Assembly (NCBI RefSeq): GCF_000970085.1 | Contig: NZ_CP009506.1 | Coordinates: 2,315,186-2,347,185, forward strand | DNA length: 32,000 bases | Direction of reading: 5' to 3' | From: Methanosarcina siciliae T4/M | GTDB taxonomy: Archaea; Halobacteriota; Methanosarcinia; Methanosarcinales; Methanosarcinaceae | Shown here: positions 7,159-28,930 of the stretch, in pieces | How the letters are laid out: every line of letters begins with the position of its first letter | Position numbering within the stretch: the first letter of the stretch is position 1 | Notes under the pieces: model-generated | Told to the model about the DNA's origin: nothing | Databases searched by the model: none | What the model saw: the letters and a program-made list of their open reading frames with translations, nothing else | Program-made: the position numbers and the translations under genes

Positions 7159-9069
7159 ATTTTAACCTCACTTTTCTCTAAAAAACAGTATCAGCTGACC
7201 TTTTGCAAATTTTTTATTTGTAGATCCTAAGTTTTAAATTCACTTTAAAAAGTCTATTAGTATTGTTTATTTCAAAAATTTATTTATATAGGTAGATCAT
7301 AATTAATACTATGGTATTTTTAAGAAAGAAACTCGTCAATGGGAAACCTTACTGGTATATAGTAGAATCTGCCAGAGTTGATGGAAAGGTAAAAACCATT
7401 TTTCAGGTTTATCTGGGTAGCGCAGAAAAAATACTTGAGATGAAAAGGCAATGTGAATCATTGCCCTATGATAAACTTAGATCCTTTGATTACGGCAAGC
7501 TTGCCGCACTTCTTCATGTGAATGAAGAACTTGGATTCATTGACATAGTTAACAAGCATACTGACAAAAAATTAATAGATGGATTGAGTGTTGGAGAATA
7601 CCTCTTACTTGATGTAATCGGAAAAAGTCACGGCGTTTTAAGTGAAAACGGGATTGAAGAGTGGTTCAAAAAATCCCCTTTAGCTTTCATGTGGAAATTC
7701 CCGCACAAGTTAAATTGTCAGAATTTTTTGAACCAAATGAATTATGTCGACTTAGATACTATGAAAAAGATTGTAGACGATCTCTGCAGAGTTCTTGTAG
7801 GAAAGGGATTAACTCCATCAATAATGTTTGTGGATGAATCAAACTGGTTTACATATGCTAACAATTATGATGACGAGAGCGAACTGCTTCATAAAGGATA
7901 TAACAAAAAGCATAGGAAAGACAAAAATCAAATATGTGTTTCGCTAGCTGTAAACGAGGATAACATACCTTTTATTCATGAAACATATCCTGGAAATGTT
8001 CATGACTCTGAAGAATTTTCAGGCATAGTAGATAAAATCATAAACAGACTGACTGAATTAAATATCTGTTCTGAAGATCTTGTTCTTGTTTTCGATAAGG
8101 GTAACAACTCAAAAGATAACATTGAAAAGGTAACCTCAAAAATGAGTTTTGTAGGATCTGCAAAAACAAATCAAGCCGAGGAGCTTCTCGATGTTCCGCT
8201 TTCCAAATATGAGTGTTTATACAAGAATTCGAAAGGTAACAAAATTTTTGGATACAGAACAAAACACCAGTTTTACGGAGCAGAATATACAACCGTAATA
8301 ACCTACAACGAAGGAACTTACAAGCTTCAAAAGAGCACTTATGAAACAAACAAATCAAGAATAATTGATAGTTTGGAGGATCTCCAGAGAAGATTAGAAA
8401 GCAGTAAAGGAAAAGAAAGAAACAGGAGCAGCGTAGAACGTGAGGTTGCAGGAATTATTCTGAAAAAATGCAATAGCGTTATAAAATATGAAATAATTGA
8501 TGCTCTGGAAGGGAAGAATTTTCCTCAGTTAAAGTTCTGGATTGATGAAGAAAACGAAAAAAAGTGCGAAAAGACGTTTGGGAAGAACGTCCTATTTACG
8601 GATAAGCAAAAGTGGCAAACTAAAAAGATAGTGAAAACATATAACAGTAAGAATCTTGTTGAAGATGATTTTAAACTGTTGAATGATCACTTGCTTGTTC
8701 CTGTAGGACCAGTATATCATCACAAGGATGAAAACATTAGAGTTCATGTGTTTTTGGCTATGGCTGGCCTACTTTTCTACAGATACCTGGCATGGGAGAC
8801 CAAAATGTACGGTTTCTCTTTGAAAAAGCTCATTGAAAAACTGTCTGAGATCAAGATTGCGGTAGTTCAGGAAAAAGAGTCCAAAAAAAGCAAAATTATT
8901 GTGGAAGAAATGGACACAAAACAAGCATCGTTATTTTCTTTTCTAAACATGGAAAAATACCTGCCATATTAACAAAATCGTTATTGGCAGGATTATTCTT
9001 TTATTAGGCATACACAAACAAAGCCAGAGGATAACGGAAAATCACTCATCTTTGAAAGGTGAGTTAAAT
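7159..9069 (+). mobile_element. IS1634-family (IS4-related) insertion sequence; boundaries tentative
   Basis: A single transposase ORF is flanked by imperfect inverted termini. ATTTTAACCTCACTTTTC lies at 7159-7176. The reverse complement of 9054-9069 is ATTTAACTCACCTTTC. These match at 15 of 16 positions with 2 indels. I could not identify a target-site duplication. Confidence 0.5.
7311..8972 (+). CDS. IS1634-family DDE transposase
   Basis: The 553-aa ORF has the N-terminus MVFLRKKLVNGKPYWYIVESARVDGKVKTI typical of IS1634 transposases. Candidate DDE residues lie in MFVDESNW, LVFDKGNNS and NLVEDDFKLLN. Confidence 0.85.
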   Translation: MVFLRKKLVNGKPYWYIVESARVDGKVKTIFQVYLGSAEKILEMKRQCESLPYDKLRSFDYGKLAALLHVNEELGFIDIVNKHTDKKLIDGLSVGEYLLLDVIGKSHGVLSENGIEEWFKKSPLAFMWKFPHKLNCQNFLNQMNYVDLDTMKKIVDDLCRVLVGKGLTPSIMFVDESNWFTYANNYDDESELLHKGYNKKHRKDKNQICVSLAVNEDNIPFIHETYPGNVHDSEEFSGIVDKIINRLTELNICSEDLVLVFDKGNNSKDNIEKVTSKMSFVGSAKTNQAEELLDVPLSKYECLYKNSKGNKIFGYRTKHQFYGAEYTTVITYNEGTYKLQKSTYETNKSRIIDSLEDLQRRLESSKGKERNRSSVEREVAGIILKKCNSVIKYEIIDALEGKNFPQLKFWIDEENEKKCEKTFGKNVLFTDKQKWQTKKIVKTYNSKNLVEDDFKLLNDHLLVPVGPVYHHKDENIRVHVFLAMAGLLFYRYLAWETKMYGFSLKKLIEKLSEIKIAVVQEKESKKSKIIVEEMDTKQASLFSFLNMEKYLPY

Positions 9070-9261: not shown

Positions 9262-10637
9262 GTTTTAATCCTTGTTTTGGTGGCTGTTGCTGTTTTAGCT
9301 TGACATACTTTCTCTAGAGGAAAAGTTGAGAGTATGTTTCAATCCTTGTTTTAGTGGCTGTTGCTGTTTTAGTACTGTCCATACTTCCTTTTATTAAAGA
9401 AATAAATAAGTTTCAATCCTTGTTTTAGTGGTTGTTGCTGTTTTAGTCCGGAAAACGTAACATTGGTCGAAGACGACCAAAATAGTTTCAATCCTTGTTT
9501 TAGTGGCTGTTGCTGTTTTAGTGTCGGAAGCCGTATCCAGGTTCCCTGGAAATGAAGCAGGTTTCAATCCTTGTTTTAGTGGCTGTTGCTGTTTTAGTGG
9601 TAAGCCTCAGCTTGACACGGGAAGAATTTTGAAGTTTCAATCCTTGTTTTAGTGGCTGTTGCTGTTTTAGCTGTCCAGCATGTAAGGGTTCAGGATCAAT
9701 CAGGCAATGTTTCAATCCTTGTTTTAGTGGCTGTTACCGTTTTTCCTGGAAGTAGGAATAGGATTGTATCGTAATACAAAGGGTTTCAATCCTTGTTTTA
9801 GTGGCTGTTACCGTTTTTCATGGAGATGAATTAATGAAAGATGCAGTCAATTTTATGTTTCAATCCTTGTTTTAGTGGCTGTTACCGTTTTTCTCTGTCT
9901 TATAGGTATAATGGATATTTTAGAACATAGTCGTTTCAATCCTTGTTTTAGTGGCTGTTACCGTTTTTCAAAAGGAGAGGAGAGGCAAAATGATTATAGA
10001 TTATTGGTTTCAATCCTTGTTTTAGTGGCTGTTACCGTTTTTCAATATAAAAGGAGTGAAAGAATGTCAGGGGAAGAATTTGTGGTTTCAATCCTTGTTT
10101 TAGTGGCTGTTACCGTTTTTCCAGAATGAAATTGTTGCTTGCCGTGTTTCTTATCAGTTTCAATCCTTGTTTTAGTGGCTGTTACCGTTTTTCAAAAAAT
10201 ACATAGAGATCAGGTTAGAGAAAGAGAATGTTTCAATCCTTGTTTTAGTGGCTGTTGCTGTTTTAGAAGGATACAATAGAGGTAGCCTTGAGTTTTATAG
10301 AAGTTTCAATCCTTGTTTTAGTGGCTGTTGCTGTTTTAGATAATGTTGGATAACATACAAACCTGCAAGATTGAAGAGAGTTTCAATCCTTGTTTTAGTG
10401 GCTGTTGCTGTTTTAGCGGAACATTCCACATTCCTGCCCCGTGGTTCAATGGGTTTCAATCCTTGTTTTAGTGGCTGTTGCTGTTTTAGCGTGAATCCGA
10501 AATCGTATTTGAAGAACAAATGCGAAGGTTTCAATCCTTGTTTTAGTGGCTGTTGCTGTTTTAGATGTCAAAGCTTATTTCTTCCCAAGAAGAAATGATC
10601 GTTTCAATCCTTGTTTTAGTGGCTGTTGCTGTTTTAG
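9262..10637 (-). CRISPR. CRISPR array 1: 19 repeats of 37 bp, 18 spacers of 35-41 bp
   Basis: The plus-strand repeat is GTTTCAATCCTTGTTTTAGTGGCTGTTGCTGTTTTAG. Repeats start at 9262 (degenerate: GTTTTAATCCTTGTTTTGGTGG...), 9336, 9410, 9485, 9561, 9634, 9709, 9783, 9857, 9933, 10007, 10085, 10157, 10230, 10303, 10380, 10453, 10528 and 10601. The seven repeats from 9709 to 10157 are a variant ending ...GTTACCGTTTTTC. The degenerate repeat at the left end and the conserved leader at the right end place transcription on the minus strand. The crRNA-sense repeat ends ...GGATTGAAAC. Confidence 0.97.
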
Positions 10638-10890
10638 AGGGTCGTTTTCCCTTATTTTCAGCAAATTATTAAGTAATCTCAAATCTTAAAACCAGTATCA
10701 AACAGCTTATTTTTTACTTTAACTGTCTAATCTTTGGAATTTACCTGTTTTTGTTTTGGTCAACAAAATTTGCTGGTCGACAAATAACTGGATAGTATAT
10801 AAGGAGCAGCAAGTTATAAACTTTTTCATTTTACACTGCCCGATATTGATATTAGTTTTTTGGTAGTGAACATACATGTACTTTGGAATG
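10638..10890 (-). promoter_or_regulatory. CRISPR leader of array 1 with candidate TATA box
   Basis: About 250 bp here are homologous to the sequence flanking array 2 (25478-25730). The shared start is AGGGTCGTTTTCCCTTATTT-CAGCAAATTATTAA. A shared GTATATAAGGA (TATATAA at 10796-10802) sits exactly 159 bp from the first repeat in both leaders. Confidence 0.7.
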
Positions 10891-13550: not shown

Positions 13551-14555
13551 TCACTCTAAATTCGCAAATTTAAGCAGCCCAAAGGAACCAAGTTCAATCT
13601 TGTTAATTTTTTCTTCAAAGCAAGTACCCGGAACAAACGCAACCCCATTTGAACTCAAATACCTTCCAAAACCCTTTTTCAGATCGTACATTCTTCCTAC
13701 AAGTGGCTCAAGCTCACCTCTATATTTTATAGATTTCTCAGAGTCCAGTAACAGATGGCCGAATATAGGAACTCCTTTATTACCATTATCTTTGTTGAAA
13801 ATCAAACGATCTTCAGCGCTTTCAAGAAACCAGTCAAAAACAGGGGTACGCTCAATCTTTTTCACTTCAGTTATTCTCAATTCCAATTTCCCGAATCCAT
13901 ATCTAAGATCTCCCCCAACATGGATTTCATTTAAAGCTTCAAACAACTTTATTGAGGTATTCTCATACCCAAGTTCTATCTCTTCAAATTTTTCGCTGTT
14001 TTTTACAGAACATTTTTCAGAAATGTCTTCTTTCACAAAAAGATACCCTTTCCAATAAACCTGCATAACTCCACAATTTATTTTATCCAAAGTTTTGCAA
14101 TTTACCTTGTTCAAGATATATTCGGTCTCATGCAAACTTTCATCCATTGCCGAGTTCCTGTTTCCTACTGTTGCTGTGGAAACAAAAGAGCTAATGAAAG
14201 TGGATTCAAATTCTCTTTCGGAACACTTGCCATATTTTAAGCCTTCTTGCGTAAAGATTGGATTAAATGTATGTTGAATGTTCCCATTTTCTTGGTCTGT
14301 AATCTCTGGAAAGAAATACGTATTTTTTACATATCTTTCAATACATTTCCCAACCTCTTCGTAAACTTTGGGATTGTATTTTATTCCTTCGTCAATTAAT
14401 TTTCTTGCCGCGTTTGCGGTTAGAGCGCCCCACATTGTTTTACCAGGGATATACCTCCGGGCTTGCTGAATAAATCCTATTTTTCGACTGCCGATGAAGA
14501 TAGGAGATTTTGCTTTAAATCTTATCTCAAAGCATGTATAACCCATAGTTCTCAC
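13551..14555 (-). CDS. cmr3: Type III RAMP subunit Cmr3 (Cas5 group)
   Basis: The 334-aa ORF is the last effector gene and overlaps the cmr5 stop by 4 bp. It has a RAMP-like N-terminus (FEIRFKAKSPIFIGS...IPGKTMWGALTANAARKL) and a C-terminal glycine loop (HVGGDLRYGFGKLEL). Its position matches cmr3 in the III-C gene order. Confidence 0.65.
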   Translation of the reverse strand: MRTMGYTCFEIRFKAKSPIFIGSRKIGFIQQARRYIPGKTMWGALTANAARKLIDEGIKYNPKVYEEVGKCIERYVKNTYFFPEITDQENGNIQHTFNPIFTQEGLKYGKCSEREFESTFISSFVSTATVGNRNSAMDESLHETEYILNKVNCKTLDKINCGVMQVYWKGYLFVKEDISEKCSVKNSEKFEEIELGYENTSIKLFEALNEIHVGGDLRYGFGKLELRITEVKKIERTPVFDWFLESAEDRLIFNKDNGNKGVPIFGHLLLDSEKSIKYRGELEPLVGRMYDLKKGFGRYLSSNGVAFVPGTCFEEKINKIELGSFGLLKFANLE

Positions 14556-14998
14556 TCTCTCTTTTCCTCATCAGCATTTTCTTCCTCTTCCGAATTCCCT
14601 CTTTCTCCTGCATTTAGAGATTTTGCACGATAACGTGCATAAATAAAGGTTTGTTCAAGAACTTGCTTTGCGAAAAGCAATTTTCTTATATCAGTTGAAA
14701 GATTGATGATTTTTCCTTCTTCACTTCCCCCAACGCCGGATTCAATTTCTATATTACACTCTTCCAGAATCTTCACTACATCGATTCTGTTATTTCGATT
14801 CCCGTTTTTGTTTGAAGCTTTTAAATATAACCATAGAGCGTACACCCCATTTGATGACAGAACTCCTAATGATTTATTTATGAAAGATTCTATCTCTTTA
14901 GGTTTCATCCCTTCCTTTGAACCTTCAGGTTTCATTAATTTATCAACAATATCGAAACCGCTTTTTGCAGCGATAAAATCAATATTATTTTGAGCCAT
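14552..14998 (-). CDS. cmr5: Type III small subunit Cmr5 (Cas11 group)
   Basis: A ~149-aa protein is predicted from the internal ATG (MAQNNIDFIAAKSG...). The longer ORF to 15094 would overlap cmr4 extensively. The sequence looks all-helical (LGVLSSNGVYALWLYLKA) with an acidic tail. It sits between cmr4 and cmr3. Confidence 0.6.
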   Translation of the reverse strand: MAQNNIDFIAAKSGFDIVDKLMKPEGSKEGMKPKEIESFINKSLGVLSSNGVYALWLYLKASNKNGNRNNRIDVVKILEECNIEIESGVGGSEEGKIINLSTDIRKLLFAKQVLEQTFIYARYRAKSLNAGERGNSEEEENADEEKRE

Positions 14999-15983
14999 TT
15001 TCTCCCACTTCCTCAATCGTAACTCTTCCGAAACCTCTTGTGACCATCCCACCGATACCAAGAGTCTCAAAGTAGCAGAACCCACCTTTAACAATTGATT
15101 TTACATCGAGAAGCGAGATCAGGGTGTTACTTTTCCCTTCCTTTGAGCTGTTCTCACTCTTTTTGCCATATCCAAAATAATCAGGATCGTTTATACCCAG
15201 TTCAAACCAGAGTATAGTGCTCCTCGGGATGGCTTCACTGGTAAAAAGGGCACCATCCTTTCCTGCACCAGTTACTGGATCAATAGATACTGAAGTTCTT
15301 ACCTCAAGGTTAGAATTTATAATCTGGGAGATTAATGAATCAGGTACGATTACAATTCTGCTGGAGAGCAATTTATTTTTCTTTGAACCGAGGGATGCAA
15401 GATGATCAAATGATGGCAATTCTTTTTCATCTTCAATTGGAAGATTGAGCCACCCAAGATTCAGGCTTGATTCCCCTGAGAACTCAGAGCCAACCACTAT
15501 AAAGCTATTCGAAGGCTTGTTTTTTGTCTCTAATTGAATTCCAAAATCTTCTAAAATCATGGGAGAAGTTATCCATGCAGGCCCAATCCTTGTACTAACT
15601 GGGAATAAAAGGATGTGAGCGTCGCTAAAGTAAACAAGCCCCTGTGAGCTTCCTCTATCATCATTCTTTGAGAAACCAAAGGATCTACAGATAATGCATT
15701 TTCCACAGTGACCTTTTTTATTATTTCCAGGTGATACATCATTGTCTTGTCCTGCACAAGTAATTTTTACCTTATATTCTTGATCTTCTTTCTGATCCTC
15801 TATTTCTTTATATGTAGCATAAGTCCTTGCAGTCCCTGCAATGCTGCTTCCGGGAATTTTTGGAAGATTGGTTGCTGGCTCTCTCACTATAGTATTATCT
15901 ACACGGCCTATCTGGTAGCCCCCGGTGCCGATGTGTATCGGATCAAGCGTAAACATAAAGTATTTACTCATTTTTATCACCAT
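14985..15983 (-). CDS. cmr4: Type III backbone RAMP subunit Cmr4 (Cas7 group)
   Basis: The N-terminus FTLDPIHIGTGGYQIGRVDNTIVREPATNLPKIPGSSIAGTARTY carries the Cmr4/Csm3 signature, including the candidate catalytic Asp. Also present are HCGKCIICRSFG, VYFSDAHILLFPV and a C-terminal GIGGMVTRGFG loop. The start could be the second Met (MSKYF, 15971). Confidence 0.85.
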   Translation of the reverse strand: MVIKMSKYFMFTLDPIHIGTGGYQIGRVDNTIVREPATNLPKIPGSSIAGTARTYATYKEIEDQKEDQEYKVKITCAGQDNDVSPGNNKKGHCGKCIICRSFGFSKNDDRGSSQGLVYFSDAHILLFPVSTRIGPAWITSPMILEDFGIQLETKNKPSNSFIVVGSEFSGESSLNLGWLNLPIEDEKELPSFDHLASLGSKKNKLLSSRIVIVPDSLISQIINSNLEVRTSVSIDPVTGAGKDGALFTSEAIPRSTILWFELGINDPDYFGYGKKSENSSKEGKSNTLISLLDVKSIVKGGFCYFETLGIGGMVTRGFGRVTIEEVGENGSK

Positions 15984-18900
15984 TTGGCTTCAATTTTAGT
16001 ATAGAGTTGTAAAACTCCAGAATATCAAAAATCGTTTTGTCGAGACAAACCTTCTTAAGCAGCTCTTTTCCCTCTTTATCTAAAGAATTCCACCACTTAC
16101 GAGTTCCAACATTTATCAAAATGTTTTCAATTTGTTTTTCGAGAGTTTCATAGTATTCAGTTTTATTTTTCTCTTTACAGTCTTTCCAATCCATATGGAG
16201 TTTCACAAGGTTTTCTTGTATGTTTTTCAGTTGTGAAGTTGTCATGTATTGTGTATTGAACAAGTTCCATACCTTTTCAAAGACTGACGAGAACTCTTCA
16301 AGAAGGTAAGGCTTTGAACCTTTAAGCGAACTTTTATCAATTCTCTTATGATCACTATCATAACTAATTTCCAATCTTCGGGCCGTGGTATCTAAAAATT
16401 CGAAATCGAAATAATTGGGATAAAGCTTTACACAATCTCCCTGGTCTAAATCGGACCCGTTGATTAGAAATTCCTTTTCATTCTCTATAAATGTTTTAAA
16501 AAAGCTCTTTTTTTTCTGTGCTTTATCTTCAGAGGTCTTAAGAAGGAAGTTAAAATAATATTTTGCCTGCTCATCTAAGCATTTATTCAATTGAATTTCT
16601 TTCTTCCTAATTCCCTGGTTATCAACTTCCAGATTGTCAACTTCCAGATTAACTATAGGAGAGTCTTTTGAAAAATTACTTACTGAAAAATCCATAAATT
16701 CAACGTCTTCAAAACCGTTAAGCATTCTTCTAGATGCATTTACAGCGGCATAAAGAGCTGTTTTTGAATCAAAAAAGACAACACCTAAGTTTAGAGGTAG
16801 TCTCCCTGCAACATTTCCCATTTCTAATGAATATTTTGCGTGAATTTCAGATATTATTTTTGGAACACTGTTTGCAGGCACTATAAATTGAAACGTAACT
16901 GGAGATAACAAAACTTCAAGGAAAGGATTGTAATAACTCCCATAAAAAACATCATTGATTATATATCTTTCAAATTTATCTGGTTTTGTTCCTTCAAGTT
17001 CGATTTCAATTTCATCCCCAATATATTTTTTTAACTTGTCTGTCGTATCATCAAACAAGCCCTTTAATTCAGGTATGTCTAAATTTTGGGTAGTGATGAA
17101 TTTTTCTCCATCGAAATACATTACAATGCTCAATTTCTTGAATTTTGCTACGTATGTGCCACGTAATAGACCTTTTGTATCTTTTAAAGTGATATTTAGG
17201 CGCTTAAATCGAATCTTCGATGAGGTTTCAATATCTTTGTAATCATGGGCAGTGGGTATGTAAATGTAGTAATTTTCATTATTCTTTAAAAAGTCACTGG
17301 TTTCCTTCCAGAAGGTTTCAGTAGATGTCCAAATCCGCCTCAATCTTGAAGGAGATGGATGTTTCCTGAAAATAGTTAGTAACAGACGTTCTGTCGCTTT
17401 TTCACAACTGGAACCATCCTTCCAATTGTTTATTTTAGCATCCCAAAGTGGATTTCTATCTACCACTAAATTTTCATAGAACTGGTGGGAATTCATTTCA
17501 CGTTGGTAAGACTCTCCAGCAATCTCTTCTAAACATTTTGGCTTTCCTTTATTTATTTTCAGTTCTTGCCTCAAGCAGTCACTCAACGAGTTCCAATTAT
17601 CGTATGATTCTAAGTTTTGAGTTGTCTGGGAAAAAACAGTATTTAGGAGTTCTCCATTAAGCCACTTACTTAGATTGAACCTTCCTGTTACGATTGCTAC
17701 TTTTCCATTTGAATCTGCAATTTCATTAATCCAAATTGTGGGGTACTTTTTATCGGAGAAATTATTAGGTAACCAATCTTTTATTCGGCTTTCTCCCCTA
17801 TTCAAACAACACTTACAAACTTCCTGATGTTCACATTTCGGATGAACTTTACATACAGGGCAAATATCAACCTGATATTCTTTATTGCCTCCCCCAGCTA
17901 TACATTCATGATATCTTGTACAGGTATTTTTGCAAAAACTACGTTTTATTCTTCCATTATTAATACATTGATCATTACTCTTGCAAACATCACAAGAACT
18001 TTTTGAAACCTGGGCATCTTGAACATCGATGGTCAAAACTTGATCCCATTTTTCTTTCCATTCAGGGACTTCTTCGTGAAGCTGAAAATTACCTCTTGCT
18101 TCGGTTAAAAGATTTGTAAGTAAGACTAGAGAACGAGAAGATTCACTTATGGATATATATGGTATAACTTCCCCATCAGACTTTTTATTTACTCTACACA
18201 GTATTTCTTCTTTTATCAATTTCTCTAGAGAATCCCGGCCTATATCAGGACCAACAAAATAGATACCACTTTCATCTCTGTAGATTTCATTTCCAATTGG
18301 AAATTCTTCTTCTATATACGTTTTTATTTCTTGATCAATATCCTCAGTTAGTTTTCTGTATGCTACAATATCAACCAACTTGTGTGCCTTTTCTACCAGA
18401 CCAAGTTTATCGTATTGCACCCCTATAATAACCCACTTTAAATCTTTTAGATTAGTCCATTCCCCATTATGTATCATATTTGCAATGGCTGATTTGTAAA
18501 GACTTGCAACAGAATAAGAATGATCCCATAGAGTAACATCATTTCCACTTCGCCTGGTATCTCCAAGGGCTTTTAGGAATTCTTTTTTCAACAGTTCAAT
18601 TATTTTTTTTCTCTGCATCACTATATTATCTGGTTTTTCAGAAATTTCTTCTAAGTAGGTAGACAATTCATTGCAAAGATTTTCTCTGCTCGGCTTTAAA
18701 TCTTCAATGTTAATTTTCTTTTCATGCCCAAAAGAAGTAGATATTTTTGTACACTCAATTGATTGCTTTCCAATATTTTGAAGAATACCTTTGTCTACTC
18801 CAGAATCAAGACGATCAATATTTTTTAATAACTCGATAAGTCTTTTATCAGTTTTTTTTCCATGATGTTCTGAAATTATTTCTTTAGGCCCCGCCAATTT

Positions 18901-19266
18901 TTCGGAGAATATAGGTTTAATTGTGTTAGTCCTAATATTTTTATTTATAATGTCCTTGAATACTTCTTTAGAAATTATTTCTTTAAAACTTGAACTCAAA
19001 AATTCACTATAATCAAATTTATCGTTGTTTTCGCTAAAAATATTATAATGCTTAAATTTGCAATAGATACTGTAATTTTTTTTTGAATCGAAGCATTCTT
19101 TACTTTGTTCAACTATGAACTCTTTACTTAATTTCCCTAAATCGTGCAACAGAGAGTAAATTTCAGACAGAAGAATGAAATCGGCATTTTCTTTAATGCG
19201 CTCTTGTCCATTCATTAATACGCCCCTGTTCTCTTCAAGAACATTCAAATTCCGGTCTTTGTTCAC
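15964..19266 (-). CDS. cas10: Cas10 (Cmr2-like) large subunit: HD motif present, canonical GGDD cyclase motif absent
   Basis: The 1100-aa ORF has an HD region LLHDLGK (res 39-45), with EHHGK and RLDSGVDK downstream. TLWDHSYSVASLY is present, as is a Cys-rich Zn cluster at res 425-487. HPSPSRLRRIW precedes the second palm domain. Where GGDD is expected the sequence reads LLSPVTFQFIVPANS (res 786-800), followed by the conserved RLPLNLGVVFFDSKTALYAAVNASRRML. No GGDD, GGDE or SGDD occurs anywhere in the ORF. Confidence 0.9.
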   Translation of the reverse strand: MNKDRNLNVLEENRGVLMNGQERIKENADFILLSEIYSLLHDLGKLSKEFIVEQSKECFDSKKNYSIYCKFKHYNIFSENNDKFDYSEFLSSSFKEIISKEVFKDIINKNIRTNTIKPIFSEKLAGPKEIISEHHGKKTDKRLIELLKNIDRLDSGVDKGILQNIGKQSIECTKISTSFGHEKKINIEDLKPSRENLCNELSTYLEEISEKPDNIVMQRKKIIELLKKEFLKALGDTRRSGNDVTLWDHSYSVASLYKSAIANMIHNGEWTNLKDLKWVIIGVQYDKLGLVEKAHKLVDIVAYRKLTEDIDQEIKTYIEEEFPIGNEIYRDESGIYFVGPDIGRDSLEKLIKEEILCRVNKKSDGEVIPYISISESSRSLVLLTNLLTEARGNFQLHEEVPEWKEKWDQVLTIDVQDAQVSKSSCDVCKSNDQCINNGRIKRSFCKNTCTRYHECIAGGGNKEYQVDICPVCKVHPKCEHQEVCKCCLNRGESRIKDWLPNNFSDKKYPTIWINEIADSNGKVAIVTGRFNLSKWLNGELLNTVFSQTTQNLESYDNWNSLSDCLRQELKINKGKPKCLEEIAGESYQREMNSHQFYENLVVDRNPLWDAKINNWKDGSSCEKATERLLLTIFRKHPSPSRLRRIWTSTETFWKETSDFLKNNENYYIYIPTAHDYKDIETSSKIRFKRLNITLKDTKGLLRGTYVAKFKKLSIVMYFDGEKFITTQNLDIPELKGLFDDTTDKLKKYIGDEIEIELEGTKPDKFERYIINDVFYGSYYNPFLEVLLSPVTFQFIVPANSVPKIISEIHAKYSLEMGNVAGRLPLNLGVVFFDSKTALYAAVNASRRMLNGFEDVEFMDFSVSNFSKDSPIVNLEVDNLEVDNQGIRKKEIQLNKCLDEQAKYYFNFLLKTSEDKAQKKKSFFKTFIENEKEFLINGSDLDQGDCVKLYPNYFDFEFLDTTARRLEISYDSDHKRIDKSSLKGSKPYLLEEFSSVFEKVWNLFNTQYMTTSQLKNIQENLVKLHMDWKDCKEKNKTEYYETLEKQIENILINVGTRKWWNSLDKEGKELLKKVCLDKTIFDILEFYNSILKLKPNGDKNE

Positions 19267-20447
19267 TCCCTCACCTTCTTGGAATCCTGCAGTCTTTGGC
19301 TGATATGTTTAGCAATATCAGTTAGTTCTTCAAAAGTGCTAAAAGACCAAGTTGGCCATTCAATAGAGGTTTTAGCTTCAGACTGAAGATGTTTCTGCCA
19401 GCCAGATGCATGGAATTTATACCATCGTTTGAACATTTTAAACTCTTTTAGAGGCCCTCCGCCACTTTGAGCTAATTTTTCACCCGTAATATTAGTTATC
19501 GGTTTACCCTCTGCACCTTTAAACGAATCTTTTAGAGTTCCATCTTCATTAAGATATTTTAAAAATATCTTTTCTGGTGGCTTCATATCTTCATGTATAG
19601 AAACAGTAACACATTTTGTTTTCAGGGTAATTTTCCCGTCCATGAGTTTATCTTCGACAATCCCAAATCCACTTGCCGTTTTGGCACCGAAACCATGGAC
19701 CAAGAACATATCTTTAAGTCCTTTAGAAATGAGGTATATATCGAAGGCAACGTTATCATTAGCATGTGATTTTTCTTCATCAGAAACACAAAAAGGAACA
19801 TAAAGCAAACTGAATGAGCCGGTACTTTTGGCAGGTACAACTTCATAATAAATAGGATTTATACCTGCTTTTCTTTCTCTATCATGTGGATTTATGACTT
19901 CAAGTTTGATATTGTCAAAATATGTAGGAAATAGAATTAAAAATCCTTTTTTGTTATCATTCTCTTTGTCAGATACGTATCCAAATAACCGGTCAATAGA
20001 TCGAGACTTTAATTCGTCATGCTTTTCTTCATCATTACTTTTAACGATAGCATTTCTTAAGGTGCCAGCCCATCCGCTTGGGCGCACCATGGGAATCTTA
20101 AAAATGGATTCTTTACATATAGGATTGTCAATAATATAGAACTGTTCATCATCTTTACTGTAAAACGGTTTCTTAAGTTTGAATTTAAATTGGACAAAAA
20201 AGGAATTAACAGGAAGAATACTAATATTAATCATTGGCTGGCATAAATTTAAGTCATGCAACAACTGGATTGCACTTTTCAACCTCAAATTACTATTGTC
20301 AATTTCATTTTTATAATCTTCTAATTTTTCTTTTTTATCCAATGAATATAGCTGAATTTTTGAATAATAATCTGATATATCATTTATTTCTGATGAATCT
20401 GAAAAATAGCTATAAAAATCATACGAATGCGTATTAGACATCCCCAT
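19263..20447 (-). CDS. cmr6: Type III RAMP subunit Cmr6 (Cas7 group)
   Basis: The 394-aa ORF contains RPSGWAGTLRNAI, DRLFGYVSD...KGFLILFPTYF, INPHDRE and a C-terminal HGFGAKTASGFG loop. It has a 4-bp overlap with cas10. Confidence 0.75.
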   Translation of the reverse strand: MGMSNTHSYDFYSYFSDSSEINDISDYYSKIQLYSLDKKEKLEDYKNEIDNSNLRLKSAIQLLHDLNLCQPMINISILPVNSFFVQFKFKLKKPFYSKDDEQFYIIDNPICKESIFKIPMVRPSGWAGTLRNAIVKSNDEEKHDELKSRSIDRLFGYVSDKENDNKKGFLILFPTYFDNIKLEVINPHDRERKAGINPIYYEVVPAKSTGSFSLLYVPFCVSDEEKSHANDNVAFDIYLISKGLKDMFLVHGFGAKTASGFGIVEDKLMDGKITLKTKCVTVSIHEDMKPPEKIFLKYLNEDGTLKDSFKGAEGKPITNITGEKLAQSGGGPLKEFKMFKRWYKFHASGWQKHLQSEAKTSIEWPTWSFSTFEELTDIAKHISQRLQDSKKVRE

Positions 20448-21417
20448 TCCTCCCGTTTTGAATATTTAGAAGAATGTCTTTTCCTGTAATTATATTGTTA
20501 ATATCCTGCTTAATTCTGGTTTGTAACTTTCTTTTGATAATATCAAGTTCTTGTTCATTTCGCACGTAACCAAAAACTTTATTTCCGATCTTAAACGAAA
20601 ATATTTTTTTACTCGAACCTGGTATCATACTTGAAGCACGATTTCCTCGAAGAAATTCTAAAAATTCGTCTCCATAAATAGAAACATTTCCTTTATTGTC
20701 CAATCCAAATATTTCATTTATCTTCAACCGATCCAAGTATTCCCCTTTTATTATCCAGTAATACCTAAAATCAAACCAGTTTTTATTGTTAATTTTTCCA
20801 CAATTTTCTGTAATAGTCTTAATCCATTTTTGAGTTTTATTATAATCAGATTTGCTTGCCCAATCAGTATTTACTAAATTGACTTCGATTAAACCGTAAT
20901 CCTTCCCAACTGGACTTCCCTGAGGCTTACGAGTTGTTCTACCACCGAATGCTCCGTAATTTTCAATTATTTGCAATGTTTGAAATAATAGCCACTTCTC
21001 GCTATCTGAAATCTTAAAAATCTCATAAAATTCAATTTCTAAAATCCCACTATAGCCATCATCATTCATTCTTTGACTAAAAGTACCCCCTAAATCGTTT
21101 GCTACAATCTTAAATCGCCGTTTCCACCCGGTACATCCAAATAACCTGCAGGCAGGGCAAACGTTTTTAAGTCCAATTTCCAGTGCTTCATCTACATTTT
21201 GTCCTTTTTCCAATGCTTTCTCATAGTCCTTTGTGTTGAACTCACATCCCCCATTTGAAGGATCACAAGCATATCCTCCCATACCTCTCACTATTGCTTC
21301 ATACCACCACCGCATGCTCCCGATGATGCTGGTCTCTTTTATTGTTGTACATTTTTGATTTGCATCTCCGGTCCAGATGGGAGTCAAAGTCTTAAATTTG
21401 ATTTCAGTTTTAACCAT
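20434..21417 (-). CDS. cmr1: Type III RAMP subunit Cmr1 (Cas7 group)
   Basis: The 327-aa ORF contains LTPIWTGD, GSMRWWYEAIVRG, CPACRLFGCTGWKRRFKI and GAFGGRTTRKPQG, which are hallmarks of Cmr1-type RAMPs. Confidence 0.8.
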   Translation of the reverse strand: MVKTEIKFKTLTPIWTGDANQKCTTIKETSIIGSMRWWYEAIVRGMGGYACDPSNGGCEFNTKDYEKALEKGQNVDEALEIGLKNVCPACRLFGCTGWKRRFKIVANDLGGTFSQRMNDDGYSGILEIEFYEIFKISDSEKWLLFQTLQIIENYGAFGGRTTRKPQGSPVGKDYGLIEVNLVNTDWASKSDYNKTQKWIKTITENCGKINNKNWFDFRYYWIIKGEYLDRLKINEIFGLDNKGNVSIYGDEFLEFLRGNRASSMIPGSSKKIFSFKIGNKVFGYVRNEQELDIIKRKLQTRIKQDINNIITGKDILLNIQNGRNGDV

Positions 21418-21438
21418 GTATTATTCCCTTGTACAAGC

Positions 21439-22182
21439 TTAATTACGAGATAATGTATTGGCATTCCAAACAGTACTTTTTAGAAAATCAGAGGATTTTT
21501 GGCAATTATACCCCCTTATTTTCCTCACAGTCCCAAACCCCTTCGCAACCCCTTTTCCTATTCCCATAAAATCCGGAATCAAAAAATTAGCTATAAAACC
21601 GCCTGTAAAAGAAGTAAAATCCATATTTTTGTACTTTGAACGCCTGAGTTCCACATCGACATCACATTTTATGGTATCGGGAACCGTATATCCAAAAGTC
21701 TTTGACATCGAGAGTAAATTTCCTGCCAGGGTCCTTCTTAGCATTTCCTTTTGCTCTTCGGGGTTTTTGGTCTCAAGAAATTTCTCCTCATTTTCTTTAT
21801 TAAGGGCCATCCAGGGAGTTAGAAATTCATAAAAGTAAATGCTTTTTGTAAGCCCAAAGTCCTGTTTTTTAAGCCTCAAAGAGCGTTCCGTGATCTCAAA
21901 GTCTTCGTGAGGAAGGGTTACCGTATCAAATTTATCAAATAAACCTTTCAAGATTTCTGCGCCTTCGTTTACCCCAACTACCAGAGGTGTCCTGTCAAGA
22001 ACTTTGTACTGCACTAAAGGGTAGCGGTAGTAAAACCTGTCAGTATTATGGTTGTGGAGAAGGTCATATTCATTGAATTTTGATGCAAAAAACCCACGGA
22101 TCTGATTTGCATCTCCCCTGAACTCCTCTTCGCCTTCAAAAGTCATTTCAAGGGTTTTGAGCTTAATGTTCCCAGGATTCAT
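21439..22182 (-). CDS. cas6: Cas6 CRISPR repeat endoribonuclease
   Basis: The 247-aa ORF contains RYPLVQYK and a C-terminal glycine-rich loop, GIGKGVAKGFGTV. It is the first gene of the effector string. Confidence 0.75.
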   Translation of the reverse strand: MNPGNIKLKTLEMTFEGEEEFRGDANQIRGFFASKFNEYDLLHNHNTDRFYYRYPLVQYKVLDRTPLVVGVNEGAEILKGLFDKFDTVTLPHEDFEITERSLRLKKQDFGLTKSIYFYEFLTPWMALNKENEEKFLETKNPEEQKEMLRRTLAGNLLSMSKTFGYTVPDTIKCDVDVELRRSKYKNMDFTSFTGGFIANFLIPDFMGIGKGVAKGFGTVRKIRGYNCQKSSDFLKSTVWNANTLSRN

Positions 22183-22304: not shown

Positions 22305-23519
22305 TTAAATAAAATCTTGAATTTTTTTATTAAAACATTGTTCAATTCTTTCAAGCCCGGAAGCATAATCCGTGTGCCTGTAGTAATTTACCCAAGGGTC
22401 TACGACATTATAAATATTTTTTATTACAATATTAAGAGCCTGATACTCGTTTTCAGAGTCAAATTTGTTCTTTTTTCCTTTAAATTCAATATCTATGCTC
22501 TCAATACTCTCTATTATCTTCTCAATTGACCCATCGGTGGGTAATACATTTATTCTGTTTCCCAAGCCGTTTTCATCCAGAATTTCCTGAAAATAGAACC
22601 CCACGAATTCAAACCCATTAGCTGCTGCCCCCACATAGGTTTTTTCTCTGTTTAATTCGAGCCCAAGTTCAGCCATAATAGTCTCAGCCCTCTCAGGCTT
22701 AATCCACTCCTTTGAAAGGACTACAAAATCATCTGCAAAACGTACGAGGTGTTCAATTGATTCCCCTTCAACATTCTTGAGCCCGATTTCTGCCCAGTGG
22801 TTGTCGAACTGGTCCAGGTAGAAGTTTACAAGAAGCGGAGAGATTATCCCGCCTTGGAGCAACCCTTTATTTGAGTTTTTTCCGGAACCGCTTCCAAAAG
22901 AACCTTTTTTGAGCCAGCTCTCGACCAGGGAAAGGATCAGCTCATCTCCAATCCTTGTTTTAATGATCTTCATGAGCTTATCATGGGGGATGTTGTCAAA
23001 ACAGCCCTCGATATCCCCCTTCAGGTAATGGGTGTTTCCGGCTTCGAGCCATTTGTAGACTTCAAGACTGGCAAGTTTTGCAGACCTGTACGCCCGGTAG
23101 CCGTAGGAACAATTTTCAAAATCAGCTTCAAAAATAGGTTCAAGGACGAGTTTTACAGCTCCCTGGACAAGCCGGTCTCTCAGAGTCAGGATTCCAAGCT
23201 GTCTTGTTTCTCCGTTTCGTTTTGGAATCTCAACCCTTTTTACTGCATCGGCAATATATTTGCCATCTTCAAGCTCTTTCTTTACGACACGGATGAATTT
23301 GTCGACCCCGGAAGCTTCTACCTGCTGGACAGTTAGAGAGTCAAAACCAGTGCCTTTTGTGTTCTTGTTCAGGTTTTTCCAGGCTGTATAGAGGATCTCG
23401 TCTTTCAAAAGCAGTTTTTTAAGCTTCCGGAACCGTTTTTGCGGGTTCCTCTTCGCTTTGTTATACAGTTTCAGTTGAATTTCGGCTAGAGTCTGGTTCT
23501 GTATATCAGGTACCTCCAT
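22305..23519 (-). CDS. Standalone group-II-intron-like reverse transcriptase (RT plus maturase/thumb-like X region), CRISPR-associated
   Basis: The 404-aa ORF shows RT motifs in order: RVEIPKRNGETRQLGILTLRDRLVQ (RT1-2), YGYR (RT3), KGDIEGCFDNIPH (RT4), LLQGGIISPLL, and VRFADDFVV (RT5 catalytic FADD). The C-terminal DPWVNYYRH resembles the maturase X-domain motif. There is no endonuclease domain and no Cas1 fusion. Confidence 0.9.
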   Translation of the reverse strand: MEVPDIQNQTLAEIQLKLYNKAKRNPQKRFRKLKKLLLKDEILYTAWKNLNKNTKGTGFDSLTVQQVEASGVDKFIRVVKKELEDGKYIADAVKRVEIPKRNGETRQLGILTLRDRLVQGAVKLVLEPIFEADFENCSYGYRAYRSAKLASLEVYKWLEAGNTHYLKGDIEGCFDNIPHDKLMKIIKTRIGDELILSLVESWLKKGSFGSGSGKNSNKGLLQGGIISPLLVNFYLDQFDNHWAEIGLKNVEGESIEHLVRFADDFVVLSKEWIKPERAETIMAELGLELNREKTYVGAAANGFEFVGFYFQEILDENGLGNRINVLPTDGSIEKIIESIESIDIEFKGKKNKFDSENEYQALNIVIKNIYNVVDPWVNYYRHTDYASGLERIEQCFNKKIQDFI

Positions 23520-23658: not shown

Positions 23659-25477
23659 GTTTCAATCCTTGTTTTAGTGGCTGTTACCGTTTTTCATCAG
23701 GGTACCAAAAGGAGAGATTCCCAGAAATGGGGGTTTCAATCCTTGTTTTAGTGGCTGTTACCGTTTTTCTGACATCACGAAACTTGGATCACTGCTCAAA
23801 ATTTATAAAAAGCTGTACAAAAAGGATGTATTCGTTTCAATCCTTGTTTTAGTGGCTGTTGCTGTTTTAGTGAAGAGTGCATAAATTCTATAATTATTGT
23901 GAAAGTTTCAATCCTTGTTTTAGTGGCTGTTGCTGTTTTAGTTGAATGAACAGTTGAGGATAATAGCGATGTTTATAAGTTTCAATCCTTGTTTTAGTGG
24001 CTGTTGCTGTTTTAGCATTGAAGTATCAAGTGTTTGTGCATATTTTCTAGTTTCAATCCTTGTTTTAGTGGCTGTTGCTGTTTTAGTTGAGGTTGAAGAT
24101 CTGACTGTGAAGGAGGGCTATATGTTTCAATCCTTGTTTTAGTGGCTGTTGCTGTTTTAGTCGGAAACAAAATGGATTTAATTGGCCAAGAAGAGTTTCA
24201 ATCCTTGTTTTAGTGGCTGTTGCTGTTTTAGTTGTCATCAGAAAATCTTGATGAACAGCTTGATAGTTTCAATCCTTGTTTTAGTGGCTGTTGCTGTTTT
24301 AGCTGTAATAAAGATTTCTGCGAGAGAGATAGATACTGAGTTTCAATCCTTGTTTTAGTGGCTGTTGCTGTTTTAGATCGGTGATGGAAAGGATTGCTAG
24401 AATTGATAATAAGGTTTCAATCCTTGTTTTAGTGGCTGTTGCTGTTTTAGCTGGAAGATTGATCATCACCCAGAAGAATCGAGAGATGTTTCAATCCTTG
24501 TTTTAGTGGCTGTTGCTGTTTTAGTAAGGGGCACACGGTTGTTCCTGTCGAAGCAGAAAAACGTTTCAATCCTTGTTTTAGTGGCTGTTGCTGTTTTAGG
24601 AATAATTACGCAAGAAATGGAAGATGGTTACAAGAGTTTCAATCCTTGTTTTAGTGGCTGTTGCTGTTTTAGCGAGAGATTGAAACAAGCAGAGGAAGAC
24701 AATAAATTTGTTTCAATCCTTGTTTTAGTGGCTGTTGCTGTTTTAGAAATTATCTTCGGTTTTAAAGCTAAAAATAAATGAAGTTTCAATCCTTGTTTTA
24801 GTGGCTGTTGCTGTTTTAGCGTGTATATCTCAAGGAAGAAGGAATGGAAAACCCAGTTTCAATCCTTGTTTTAGTGGCTGTTGCTGTTTTAGTTTTGACC
24901 AAAGGACTAGCTCATGTAGTTATATTTAGTTTCAATCCTTGTTTTAGTGGCTGTTGCTGTTTTAGAATAAAAGTCTAACCGTGATTGATATCATTGATAA
25001 AGGTTTCAATCCTTGTTTTAGTGGCTGTTGCTGTTTTAGCAGAGACACTTGTGTCTAGGGGAATGAGAGTGTCAGGTTTCAATCCTTGTTTTAGTGGCTG
25101 TTGCTGTTTTAGGTAAAAACAAAAACGGAGTGCAAAAAATGGAAAAGTTTCAATCCTTGTTTTAGTGGCTGTTGCTGTTTTAGTGGCAGATATAGATCCC
25201 AAATTTTTCGAGAAAACAAGTTTCAATCCTTGTTTTAGTGGCTGTTGCTGTTTTAGAATCAAGAGATAAGAGGAATAACCGGATCTATACTGGTTTCAAT
25301 CCTTGTTTTAGTGGCTGTTGCTGTTTTAGGTGGAAAACACTGGTTTTTTAAAAAATACAAAAAGAGGTTTCAATCCTTGTTTTAGTGGCTGTTGCTGTTT
25401 TAGTCCCATATCTGGCACATGGAAAAGTTTTCCCAGAAGAGTTTCAATCCTTGTTTTAGTGGCTGTTGCTGTTTTAG
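23659..25477 (-). CRISPR. CRISPR array 2: 25 repeats of 37 bp, 24 spacers (34-38 bp plus one of 63 bp)
   Basis: The repeat is the same as in array 1. Repeats start at 23659, 23733 (both the ...ACCGTTTTTC variant), 23833, 23904, 23979, 24050, 24124, 24195, 24266, 24340, 24414, 24488, 24563, 24636, 24710, 24783, 24856, 24928, 25003, 25076, 25147, 25220, 25293, 25367 and 25441. The leader is on the right, so the array is transcribed on the minus strand. Confidence 0.97.
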
Positions 25478-25730
25478 AGGGTCGTTTTCCCTTATTTACA
25501 GCAAATTATTAAATAATTCCAAATCTAAAAAACAATAGCAAGCAAATTATTTTTTGCTTAAACTGTATAATATTTAAAATTTGCTTACTTCCATTTTTGT
25601 TAACTAAATTTGTCCATCGACAATTAGCTAAGGAGTATATAAGGATGGATACCATATAAACTTTTGTATTTTCGACTGCTTGGCAGCGAAATTATTTTTT
25701 TGACAATGTACATATCTGTACACTTCTTTA
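25478..25730 (-). promoter_or_regulatory. CRISPR leader of array 2 with candidate TATA box
   Basis: This region is homologous to 10638-10890. TATATAA at 25636-25642 lies 159 bp from the first repeat, the same distance as in leader 1. Confidence 0.7.
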
Positions 25731-26044: not shown

Positions 26045-27094
26045 ATGGTTTTCAAATTCAGGAGGGAATTCTGGATTAGGTTGATTGTTGACGAATACGG
26101 GACTTATATACATAAGAAGAGCAACCGGTTTATTTTCGTTGATAAGACTGAAAAGCTGCTCAAAAAAGGGTTTTCAGCGGATAAAGTGTCTCAGATCCTT
26201 ATTTACAAAGGAGCTGCAGTTACTGCTGATGCGATAGAGCTTGCGGTTAAAAAAGGAATAGACATAGTTTATTTTGACCGGCTGGGGAAGCCTTTTGCAA
26301 GGACTTATTCCTGCGAACAGGAAAACTCTGCAACCGTACAGCGCTACCAGGCAAGGGCTTATGATGACGGAAAAGGGATTTTTCTTATGGGCTCCATGAT
26401 CGGAGCTAAAATAAGGAACCAGGGATATCTGCTGAAAAGCCTGGCAAAAAAGAGAAATAATGAGCGCTTAGTGGGACAGGCGGAAAGGATCATGTCCCTG
26501 TCCGAAAAAATAAAGGAGCGGGCTGAAGAGTGGGGATATATTGAAGAAGCAAGGGAGAGCCTGTTCGGGATTGAAGGCGAGGCTTCAAGGATTTACTTTC
26601 AGGCCCTCTCAAATGTCCTTCCCGAAGCCGTGTACTCGGGGACGAGAACAAAAAGGCCGCCTGGAGACCTTTTTAATGCAATGCTCAGTTACGGGTACGG
26701 AATTCTCTATACCGAAGTGGAAAAAGCCTGCGTGCTCTCAGGCCTCAACCCCTACATGGGTTTCCAGCATACCGACCTTCCGGGAAAGCCGTCTCTTATC
26801 CTTGACCTGATTGAAGAATTCCGGCAGCCGGTTGTGGACAGGGCTGTGATAAGCCTTATCTCAAAAAAGCTTGTAACAGAAAAAGACCTCAAGTCGGTTG
26901 AAGGCGGTTTTTACCTGAACAGGGCCGGAAGGCGCAAAACTCTAGAAGCAGTCTCCGAAAGGCTTGCAAAAACTGTAAATTACAGGGGTTTCCGGCACTC
27001 ATTTTCCATCTTAATCCTGAAGCAGACAAGGGCGGTTGCAAAATTTCTTACCGGAGAGAGCAGCGGATATGCTCCTTTTGTATACTGGCGATAA
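26045..27094 (+). CDS. cas1: Cas1 integrase
   Basis: The 349-aa ORF contains GIDIVYFDRLGKPFARTY, EGEASRIYFQAL, PPGDLFNAMLSYGYGILY and GFQHTDLPGKPSLILDLIEEFRQPVVDR. These are canonical Cas1 motifs, including the His and Asp/Glu catalytic positions. Confidence 0.95.
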   Translation: MVFKFRREFWIRLIVDEYGTYIHKKSNRFIFVDKTEKLLKKGFSADKVSQILIYKGAAVTADAIELAVKKGIDIVYFDRLGKPFARTYSCEQENSATVQRYQARAYDDGKGIFLMGSMIGAKIRNQGYLLKSLAKKRNNERLVGQAERIMSLSEKIKERAEEWGYIEEARESLFGIEGEASRIYFQALSNVLPEAVYSGTRTKRPPGDLFNAMLSYGYGILYTEVEKACVLSGLNPYMGFQHTDLPGKPSLILDLIEEFRQPVVDRAVISLISKKLVTEKDLKSVEGGFYLNRAGRRKTLEAVSERLAKTVNYRGFRHSFSILILKQTRAVAKFLTGESSGYAPFVYWR

Positions 27095-27148: not shown

Positions 27149-27454
27149 ATGTTTTTGTGGCTCGTCTACGACATAACCGATAACAACCTACGGAACAGGG
27201 TCTCGGAAAAATGCCTGGACTTCGGGCTCAGCAGGTTCCAGAAAAGCGTTTTTTTCGGCGAGCTTGACCCTGAAAAGATGAACGGACTTGCAGACGAAAT
27301 CGAGCAGCTACTTGACCATGAAGAGAGGACTGAAGAAGATTCCGTGCTCCTGTCTCCGGTTTGCATGGCCTGCCTGGGAAAAAGGCTCGTAATCGGGAAG
27401 GACTTCAACCCTGAAACATACGCAGAAAAAGAATGCTTATTTATTGCTGAATGA
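27149..27454 (+). CDS. cas2: Cas2
   Basis: The 101-aa ORF starts MFLWLVYDITDNNLRNRVSEKCLDFGLSRFQKSVFFGEL, a ferredoxin-fold Cas2 signature with the conserved N-terminal Asp. It lies directly after cas1. Confidence 0.9.
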   Translation: MFLWLVYDITDNNLRNRVSEKCLDFGLSRFQKSVFFGELDPEKMNGLADEIEQLLDHEERTEEDSVLLSPVCMACLGKRLVIGKDFNPETYAEKECLFIAE

Positions 27455-28893: not shown

Positions 28894-28930
28894 GTTTCAA
28901 TCCTTGTTTTAGTTGATCTTGTTTTTGAAT
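28894..28930. repeat. Solitary degenerate CRISPR repeat (third sequence variant)
   Basis: GTTTCAATCCTTGTTTTAGTTGATCTTGTTTTTGAAT matches the array repeat over its first 20 nt and then diverges. There is no neighbouring repeat within normal spacer distance. Confidence 0.7.

Follow-up and report, generated by a model that had tools for sequence, protein, structure and literature searches.

The window analyzed here is a stretch of 32,000 nucleotides (nt) from Methanosarcina siciliae T4/M (NZ_CP009506.1, positions 2,315,186 to 2,347,185 of the forward strand; coordinates below refer to the window). Its positions 13551-22182 carry a type III CRISPR-Cas module whose Cas10 protein belongs to the Csx11 family. 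Judged by profile matches and conserved residues, the module is a complete, standard effector operon of subtype III-C (Cmr-like). We assign a probability of roughly 0.85 to the reading that it would mediate interference through the HD DNase of Cas10 and the RNase of Cmr4, without synthesis of cyclic oligoadenylate (cOA). A cyclase-dead, HD-intact Cas10 is a defining and published property of III-C and Csx11, and as such is already known. Csx11 has been called an “inactivated Cas10 (Csx11 subfamily)” (Makarova 2011, PMC3150331), III-C is listed among subtypes with an inactivated cyclase (Makarova 2025, PMC12669027), and immunity by HD DNase and Cmr4 RNase in the absence of cOA, which the motifs make a reasonable expectation, agrees with Hoikkala 2024 (PMC11229360).

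Loss of the cyclase site in palm-2

The preliminary description of the locus had proposed that the sequence SPVTFQ stands in Cas10 where the palm-2 motif GGDD is expected. Residues of Cas10 are numbered from the GTG codon at 19266 (1100 amino acids, aa) unless numbering of the 1083-aa form is stated. The GGDD position was located by four independent lines of evidence, namely the family alignment, a structural model, comparison of the family profile with a known structure, and comparison with canonical Cas10 proteins. The alignment, built from 33 diverse homologues and then from 65, shows the hairpin as x-P-x-x-F, its Pro being invariant, and neither GGDD nor GGDE occurs at the palm-2 turn in any of the 65 Csx11 homologues. 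In the AlphaFold2 model, S-P-V occupies the turn of a beta-hairpin (766-770/774-780, 1083-aa numbering), behind which a helix, a strand and another helix complete what is, as modeled, the palm topology. The Csx11 profile aligns with Pyrococcus furiosus Cmr2 from FQFLVPA/VLAILPV through beta-4 and the PLY-helix block; we take GGDD to directly precede VLAILP in the P. furiosus protein. Eight Cas10 proteins from the same archaeal family, six of them full-length, served as the canonical set, and all of them have GGDD. The beta-4 anchor follows SPVT by 37 aa, and in canonical Cas10 it follows GGDD by 36-47 aa. SPVTFQ at this position is thereby confirmed, with coordinates shifted by one residue (788-793, nt 16888-16905, instead of the estimated ~787-792).

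Scanning the whole protein for GGDD, GGDE, G[GAS]D[DE], xGDD and GGxD returned no match, in agreement with the earlier statement that no GGDD-like tetrapeptide exists in its 1100 aa. The DxD metal-binding motif was likewise absent from beta-1 of palm-2. A GGDD equivalent was also looked for elsewhere in palm-2. The sole candidate, YFDGEK (in VMYFDGEKF), is located in the palm-2 insertion and was rejected: its hhalign confidence digits are 0-4, near zero, its distance from beta-4 is 110 aa, where canonical Cas10 has 36-47 aa, and it offers a single Asp that is not conserved in the family. The claim of a missing cyclase site outlasted this search, and on alignment evidence the absence of GGDD is a trait of the Csx11 family and no peculiarity of this gene.

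Both sequence blocks said to flank the dead motif are present, HPSPSRLRRIW at residues 636-646 and RLPLNLGVVFFDSKTALYAAVNASRR at residues 822-847. The former is conserved within Csx11 only and could not be shown in canonical Cas10. The distance between this block and the dead motif is 141 aa, and the previous figure of ~110 aa has to be corrected. It corresponds to an insertion of ~140 aa, found family-wide, that separates the dead hairpin from the conserved PSPxRLRRIW helix.

At the level of the genome (one contig of 5.02 Mb, 99.99% completeness), a search with PF22335 detected no other Cas10 palm-2, and no other RAMP cluster was found; the III-C module is therefore the sole type III system of this genome. 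Pfam and PADLOC searches disclosed no CARF or SAVED nuclease effector within the window.

Fold and conserved motifs of Cas10

The Cas10 protein is comprised of an HD domain, palm-1, a zinc (Zn) finger, palm-2 with its insertion, and a helical C-terminal domain. Its AlphaFold2 model, built on the family alignment, has a predicted local distance difference test score (pLDDT) of 81 and a predicted template modeling score (pTM) of 0.86. Foldseek relates the model to Csm1/Cmr2 chains with a probability of 1.00, and hhalign aligns Csx11 with the six full-length canonical Cas10 proteins at 97.7% probability. A single-sequence search of the PDB with Cas10 gave nothing useful, and P. furiosus Cmr2 was reached by the family profile alone.

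All three HD nuclease motifs named previously, LLHDLGK, EHHGK and DSGVD, were found intact. The region is matched by the PADLOC Cas3-HD model (8.5e-6, residues 16-184), and HD is kept in 58 of the 65 Csx11 homologues, five others having HM or FN instead.

Upstream of the Zn finger, an additional Cys cluster was observed at 17920-17992 on the minus strand (residues ~425-449), consisting of five Cys residues, with a sixth at position 455. It falls in a low-confidence stretch of the model and is mostly gapped in distant homologues; it is possibly a second metal site.

Gene content and organization of the effector operon

Genes of the module were identified by Pfam, NCBIfam and PADLOC profile searches (Table 1). 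The seven open reading frames (ORFs) at 13551-22182 are all on the minus strand, intact and closely packed. All seven are named by these profiles with scores far above curated cut-offs (for csx11, 460 bits against the TIGR02682 cut-off of 248.95), so that the proposal of a complete III-C-like effector module is well founded. PADLOC and NCBIfam assignments also bear out the order cas6-cmr1-cmr6-cas10-cmr4-cmr5-cmr3. The 2015 classification reportedly gives cmr1, cmr6, cas10, cmr4, cmr5, cmr3 as the order in III-C.

Overlaps of 4-14 bp had been described between the genes, which is roughly right. They amount to 14 bp for cmr1/cmr6, 4 bp for cmr6/cas10 (with the GTG start) and for cmr5/cmr3, and 14 bp for cmr4/cmr5 if cmr5 starts at M33. 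Deviating from this range, cas10 and cmr4 overlap by 20 bp (8 bp if the second Met is used), and cas6b and cmr1, the one non-overlapping pair, are separated by a gap of 21 bp. The cmr5 ORF extends over 14552-15094, and its likely true start is M33 at 14998, as homologues in two related loci (L081 and L101) are 147 aa long. The start of csx11 is ambiguous (19215-19266), since the GTG codon yields 1100 aa and the 4-bp overlap with cmr6, while M18 yields 1083 aa. The public record of the protein begins at M18, and an 87%-identical homologue is recorded with 1099 aa; homologues carry the name Csx11 in NCBI and JGI records.

In Cmr4, D29 (nt 15897-15899) in the segment GRVDNTIVRE pairs in the alignment to 4w8w with the Asp within GVVDQPIQRE of the P. 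furiosus protein, its catalytic D26. As a separate feature, Cmr4 has an insertion with the pattern C-x17-C-x2-C-x2-C at 15684-15758 on the minus strand (residues ~76-100), absent from the Cmr4 of P. furiosus and of 9arw, which is likely a Zn ribbon.

Proposed mode of action

From the family assignment and the ATTGAAAC end of the repeats, Cas6b is expected to cut the 37-nt repeats and leave an 8-nt 5' tag on CRISPR RNAs (crRNAs). Homology suggests that Cmr1, Cmr6, several copies of Cmr4, Cmr5, Cmr3 and the Csx11-type Cas10 would assemble on the crRNA. The complex would then bind complementary transcripts, to be cleaved by Cmr4, in which the catalytic position is occupied by D29. By analogy with III-A and III-B biochemistry, target binding may license the N-terminal HD domain of Cas10, with its motifs present, to cut single-stranded DNA. 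Palm-2 would make no cOA because both metal-binding motifs are gone, GGDD being replaced by SPVT and DxD being absent.

Arrays, adaptation genes and surroundings

The effector module is located between two CRISPR arrays built of the same repeat (Table 1). Together with its own reverse transcriptase (RT), cas1 and cas2 as adaptation genes and the two arrays, the operon is, as annotated here, a complete system. The RT fits clade 1 of CRISPR-associated RTs of Methanosarcinaceae, and the unfused CRISPR-linked RT of this family has been published (PMC5541045). We rejected the idea that the RT is part of a group II intron, as there is no Rfam match to intron RNA and the flanks before cas6b and the array are ~120-140 nt long.

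Two repeat variants, ending in ...GTTGCTGTTTTAG and ...GTTACCGTTTTTC and different only in the last 10 nt of the plus strand, are intermingled in both arrays. In the transcribed orientation (minus strand), these variable nt form the 5' end of the repeat, remote from the ATTGAAAC tag. A solitary CRISPR repeat at 28894-28930 (minus strand; Rfam CRISPR-DR7, 43.5 bits) has no copies nearby.

ATPases of the AAA_14/DUF4143 and ATPase_2 kinds and a DDE transposase are encoded in the flanks of the locus, at 3881-5362 (minus), 7311-8972 (plus) and 30876-31976 (minus). Such a set is typical of islands of defence genes or mobile elements around a CRISPR locus. The far side of the locus is syntenic with CP009508.1 (M. 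siciliae C2J).

Table 1. Position of genes, arrays and Cas10 motifs within the window
Feature	Position	Strand	Evidence or remark
CRISPR array 1, 19 repeats of 37 nt, two variants	9262..10640	-	minus-strand repeat end ATTGAAAC
Cyclase-like + nSTAND3 + HEAT-like repeat gene, 818 aa	11025..13481	-	69 bp after cmr3
cmr3/cas5, 334 aa	13551..14555	-	PADLOC Cmr3 2e-69
cmr5/cas11 small subunit, 148 aa from M33	14552..14998	-	III-C-specific PADLOC Cmr5 1e-28, from residue 36
cmr4, 332 aa, backbone RNase subunit	14985..15983	-	TIGR02580 131 bits; PADLOC Cmr4 2e-46
cas10/csx11, 1100 aa from GTG	15964..19266	-	TIGR02682 equivalog 460 bits; PADLOC Cas10c 3e-156
Cas10: SPVT, residues 788-791, replacing GGDD at the turn of the palm-2 hairpin	16894..16905	-	alignment, model, spacing
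Cas10: beta-rich Csx11-specific insertion in palm-2, residues ~664-779	16930..17277	-	AlphaFold2 secondary structure, family alignment
Cas10: palm-2 beta-1 VAIVTGRFN	17677..17703	-	canonical DxD positions read R/N, or N/E in alternative register
Cas10: treble-clef Zn finger C469, C472, C484, C487	17806..17862	-	invariant in 33-sequence alignment
Cas10: palm-1 hairpin GNEIYRDESG, residues 325-334	18265..18294	-	family alignment, hhalign
Cas10: HD nuclease motifs	18793..19152	-	LLHDLGK 39-45 (HD 41-42), EHHGK 133-137 (HH 134-135), DSGVD 154-158
cmr6, 394 aa, Cas7-group RAMP	19263..20447	-	PADLOC Cmr6 8e-71
cmr1, 327 aa, Cas7-group RAMP	20434..21417	-	TIGR01894 1e-20; PADLOC Cmr1 III-B/III-C models
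cas6b, 247 aa, pre-crRNA endonuclease	21439..22182	-	Pfam Cas6b_N + Cas6b_C; PADLOC Cas6b 2e-75
Stand-alone group-II-intron-type RT, between array 2 and cas6b	22305..23519	-	
CRISPR array 2, 25 repeats, same repeat as array 1	23659..25489	-	
cas1	26045-27094	+	
cas2	27149-27454	+	
Csa3-like CARF + winged helix-turn-helix (wHTH) regulator	27572-28342	+	PADLOC CARF3 4e-109

The gene downstream of cmr3

The gene that follows cmr3 encodes a protein for which nSTAND3 is the only Pfam match (PF20720, 4e-25, 88.9 bits). The nSTAND3 domain has Walker A and B motifs, with GKT 244-246 (Walker A) and D296 invariant, and the C-terminal repeats are HEAT-like. In the N-terminal domain (~residues 1-205), D13, G16, F17 and D69 are invariant in alignments of 18 and 10 sequences, and E98 is invariant as well. 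The AlphaFold2 model of this domain has pLDDT 81 and pTM 0.78. When the model was compared by Foldseek, the best 50 PDB matches were without exception class III cyclases (adenylyl, guanylyl or uridylyl), with E values down to 1e-5 and template modeling (TM) scores of 0.4-0.6. The domain has the beta-alpha-beta-beta-alpha-beta core of the class III cyclase-homology fold and two metal-binding Asp residues, one in the DIxGF motif of beta-1 and the other at the beta-2/beta-3 turn. No Pfam match (Guanylate_cyc) was obtained at E up to 10, nor any match to PDB sequences, and the transition-state Arg/Asn and base-specifying residues of class III cyclases were not found in it. By motif reading, E98 seems to stand at the place of their conserved beta-4 Arg. 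As far as the model goes, the likeness of this domain to class III cyclases is at the level of the fold only.

Five loci have this gene after cmr3, with position and strand unchanged: the window, L081/L082, L084, L101 (M. barkeri 3) and L102 (M. siciliae C2J). The gaps measure 68-160 bp, and Csx11 proteins of these loci are ~50-100% identical. In M. lacustris Z-7289 (CP009515.1, L085:10001-17706), a homologue opens a type III-F module that comprises, according to PADLOC, Cas10f, a Cas5-Cas11f fusion, Cas7f and Cas6b. This Cas10f keeps HD and DxD (KIDLD) and has ILDD where GGDD is expected. All CRISPR-linked copies fall into a single clade (support 98/98) that branches within the stand-alone members of the family, and distant relatives stand alone in defence islands without cas genes (L086-L089). 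In 80 other Csx11 loci across bacteria and archaea, tblastn and two hidden Markov models detected no homologue, and a role as a general III-C accessory was rejected on this basis.

Alternative readings

Several points weigh against interference by HD and Cmr4 without nucleotide signalling. We found no biochemical study of a III-C complex in the searchable literature, which bears out the preliminary remark that III-C is little characterized, and the activities are inferred from motifs. The locus has a Csa3-like CARF regulator without an evident source of its ligand, and the cyclase-like-domain gene following the operon means that the locus may not be free of nucleotide signalling. In M. mazei, III-C is reportedly hardly expressed under standard conditions (PMC7465815). 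Finally, conservation within Csx11 peaks at the palm-1 hairpin GNEIYRDExG, in which G, N and D are identical in all 65 homologues and Y is Y in 63 and F in two. Such conservation raises the idea that palm-1 of Csx11 forms a nucleotidyl-transferase-type site of a different kind, from the hairpin Asp and an Asp/Asn on beta-1. The residue following the hairpin Asp is mostly Glu, and hhalign puts the beta-1 Asp opposite the canonical palm-1 Asp and the hairpin opposite the acid-free GGGN hairpin of canonical palm-1. In the same register, however, the D-E pair precedes the canonical catalytic pair by two positions, about one third of the family has Asn as the beta-1 residue, and contacts with Cmr3 or the crRNA tag could equally explain the conservation. 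We know of no precedent for a site of this type, and consider it highly improbable here. The module could also be largely silent, or a remnant outside defence (with a role such as RNA binding or regulation), in which HD is not used for DNA cleavage. This would fit M. mazei, where III-C gives few crRNAs in standard growth and interference is undemonstrated (PMC7465815), as well as the lack of HD in about half of III-C systems (PMC11229360) and the HM or FN variants among the homologues noted above. Set against it are seven intact, compactly spaced genes, conserved HD, Zn-finger and Cmr4 catalytic positions, and two long arrays accompanied by cas1, cas2 and RT. These are the features that purifying selection on a working system would leave, and we regard the silent or remnant state as unlikely.

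A third possibility is that signalling has been outsourced, the protein encoded after cmr3 working together with the III-C complex and supplying a nucleotide messenger, or depleting nucleoside triphosphates; the receiver could be the Csa3-like CARF regulator or an unlinked effector. Extended to the genus, GGDD-less type III modules of Methanosarcina (at least five III-C loci and one III-F locus) would be permanently coupled to the cyclase-fold/nSTAND3 clade, with signalling moved from Cas10 to this STAND-controlled cyclase and the CARF regulator as its readout. The complex with its dead palm would trigger the cyclase or act jointly with it. The position kept after cmr3 in five loci, the homologue attached to an ILDD Cas10f and the single supported clade of CRISPR-linked copies speak in favor, as do the modeled cyclase fold with D13 and D69 retained and the occurrence of a CARF protein in a genome that has no Cas10 cyclase elsewhere. 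III-F itself has been reported to be devoid of cyclase motifs and effectors (PMC11229360), although it is not among the inactivated subtypes in PMC12669027. Since every linked case comes from a single genus and a single clade, vertical inheritance of the neighborhood explains these cases equally well, and the occurrence of distant members without cas genes, as well as the absence from the other 80 Csx11 loci, also argues against a functional tie. CARF domains are known as binders of cOA and not of the cyclic nucleoside monophosphates made by class III cyclases. Co-transcription of cmr3 and its neighbor is not evident, because the 69-bp gap between them contains an A/T-rich TATA-like sequence and a T5 run. 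Moreover, self-contained sensors of the Avs type, Avs5 among them, have the same layout of effector, STAND and repeats. A self-contained Avs5-like sensor inherited beside a CRISPR hot spot is thus more likely than an outsourced cyclase; we think a working partnership at this locus unlikely, and its extension across Methanosarcina modules a speculative proposal of low probability. Interference through HD and Cmr4 without cOA remains our preferred reading of the III-C operon.

Comparison with known systems

As an example of III-C from a genus for which genetic tools exist, the locus is clean and complete, comprising effectors, Cas6b, RT, Cas1-Cas2, a CARF regulator and two arrays. It is suited to a first reconstitution of a III-C complex and could be used to test type III immunity that depends on HD and Cmr4 nucleases alone. 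The neighboring STAND gene with its cyclase fold is the sole element that could change the understanding of signal-less type III systems, in the improbable event that its link to the operon is true.

With the prototype of the subtype (Methanothermobacter MTH326-like; Csx11, TIGR02682), the module shares a Cas10 with HD and an inactivated palm-2, the order cmr1-cmr6-cas10-cmr4-cmr5-cmr3, and the lack of a CARF nuclease effector in the locus. Most III-C loci are without arrays and adaptation genes (PMC12669027), whereas two arrays, cas1, cas2, cas6b and RT are present here; III-C with arrays and adaptation genes has already been recorded as an exception for Methanosarcinaceae (PMC5541045). The III-C system of M. 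mazei Go1 (Nickel et al. 2013, cited in PMC7465815) is likened by description: it belongs to the same genus and subtype, has arrays processed by Cas6b, and a Csa3-like CARF-wHTH regulator is likewise encoded near its CRISPR loci. Other Csx11 proteins found in sampled genomes of the genus and family are ~30% identical to the one studied here.

Subunits, the Cas10 fold, the Cmr4 Asp and the N-terminal HD are shared with type III-B Cmr systems (P. furiosus, A. fulgidus, S. islandicus Cmr-beta). Cas10 of III-B has GGDD and DxD and makes cOA, in contrast to the Cas10 described here, which is without both motifs and carries the ~140-aa insertion in palm-2. The gene downstream of cmr3 has the nSTAND3 core (PF20720) and the effector-NTPase-repeat layout in common with Avs5 (SIR2-nSTAND3-repeat). 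The effector of Avs5 is SIR2; no SIR2 effector was identified in the neighboring gene, and SIR2-nSTAND3 proteins are distant outgroups to it. Its own effector domain is class-III-cyclase-like, its repeats are HEAT-like, and one clade of its family is found within type III operons.

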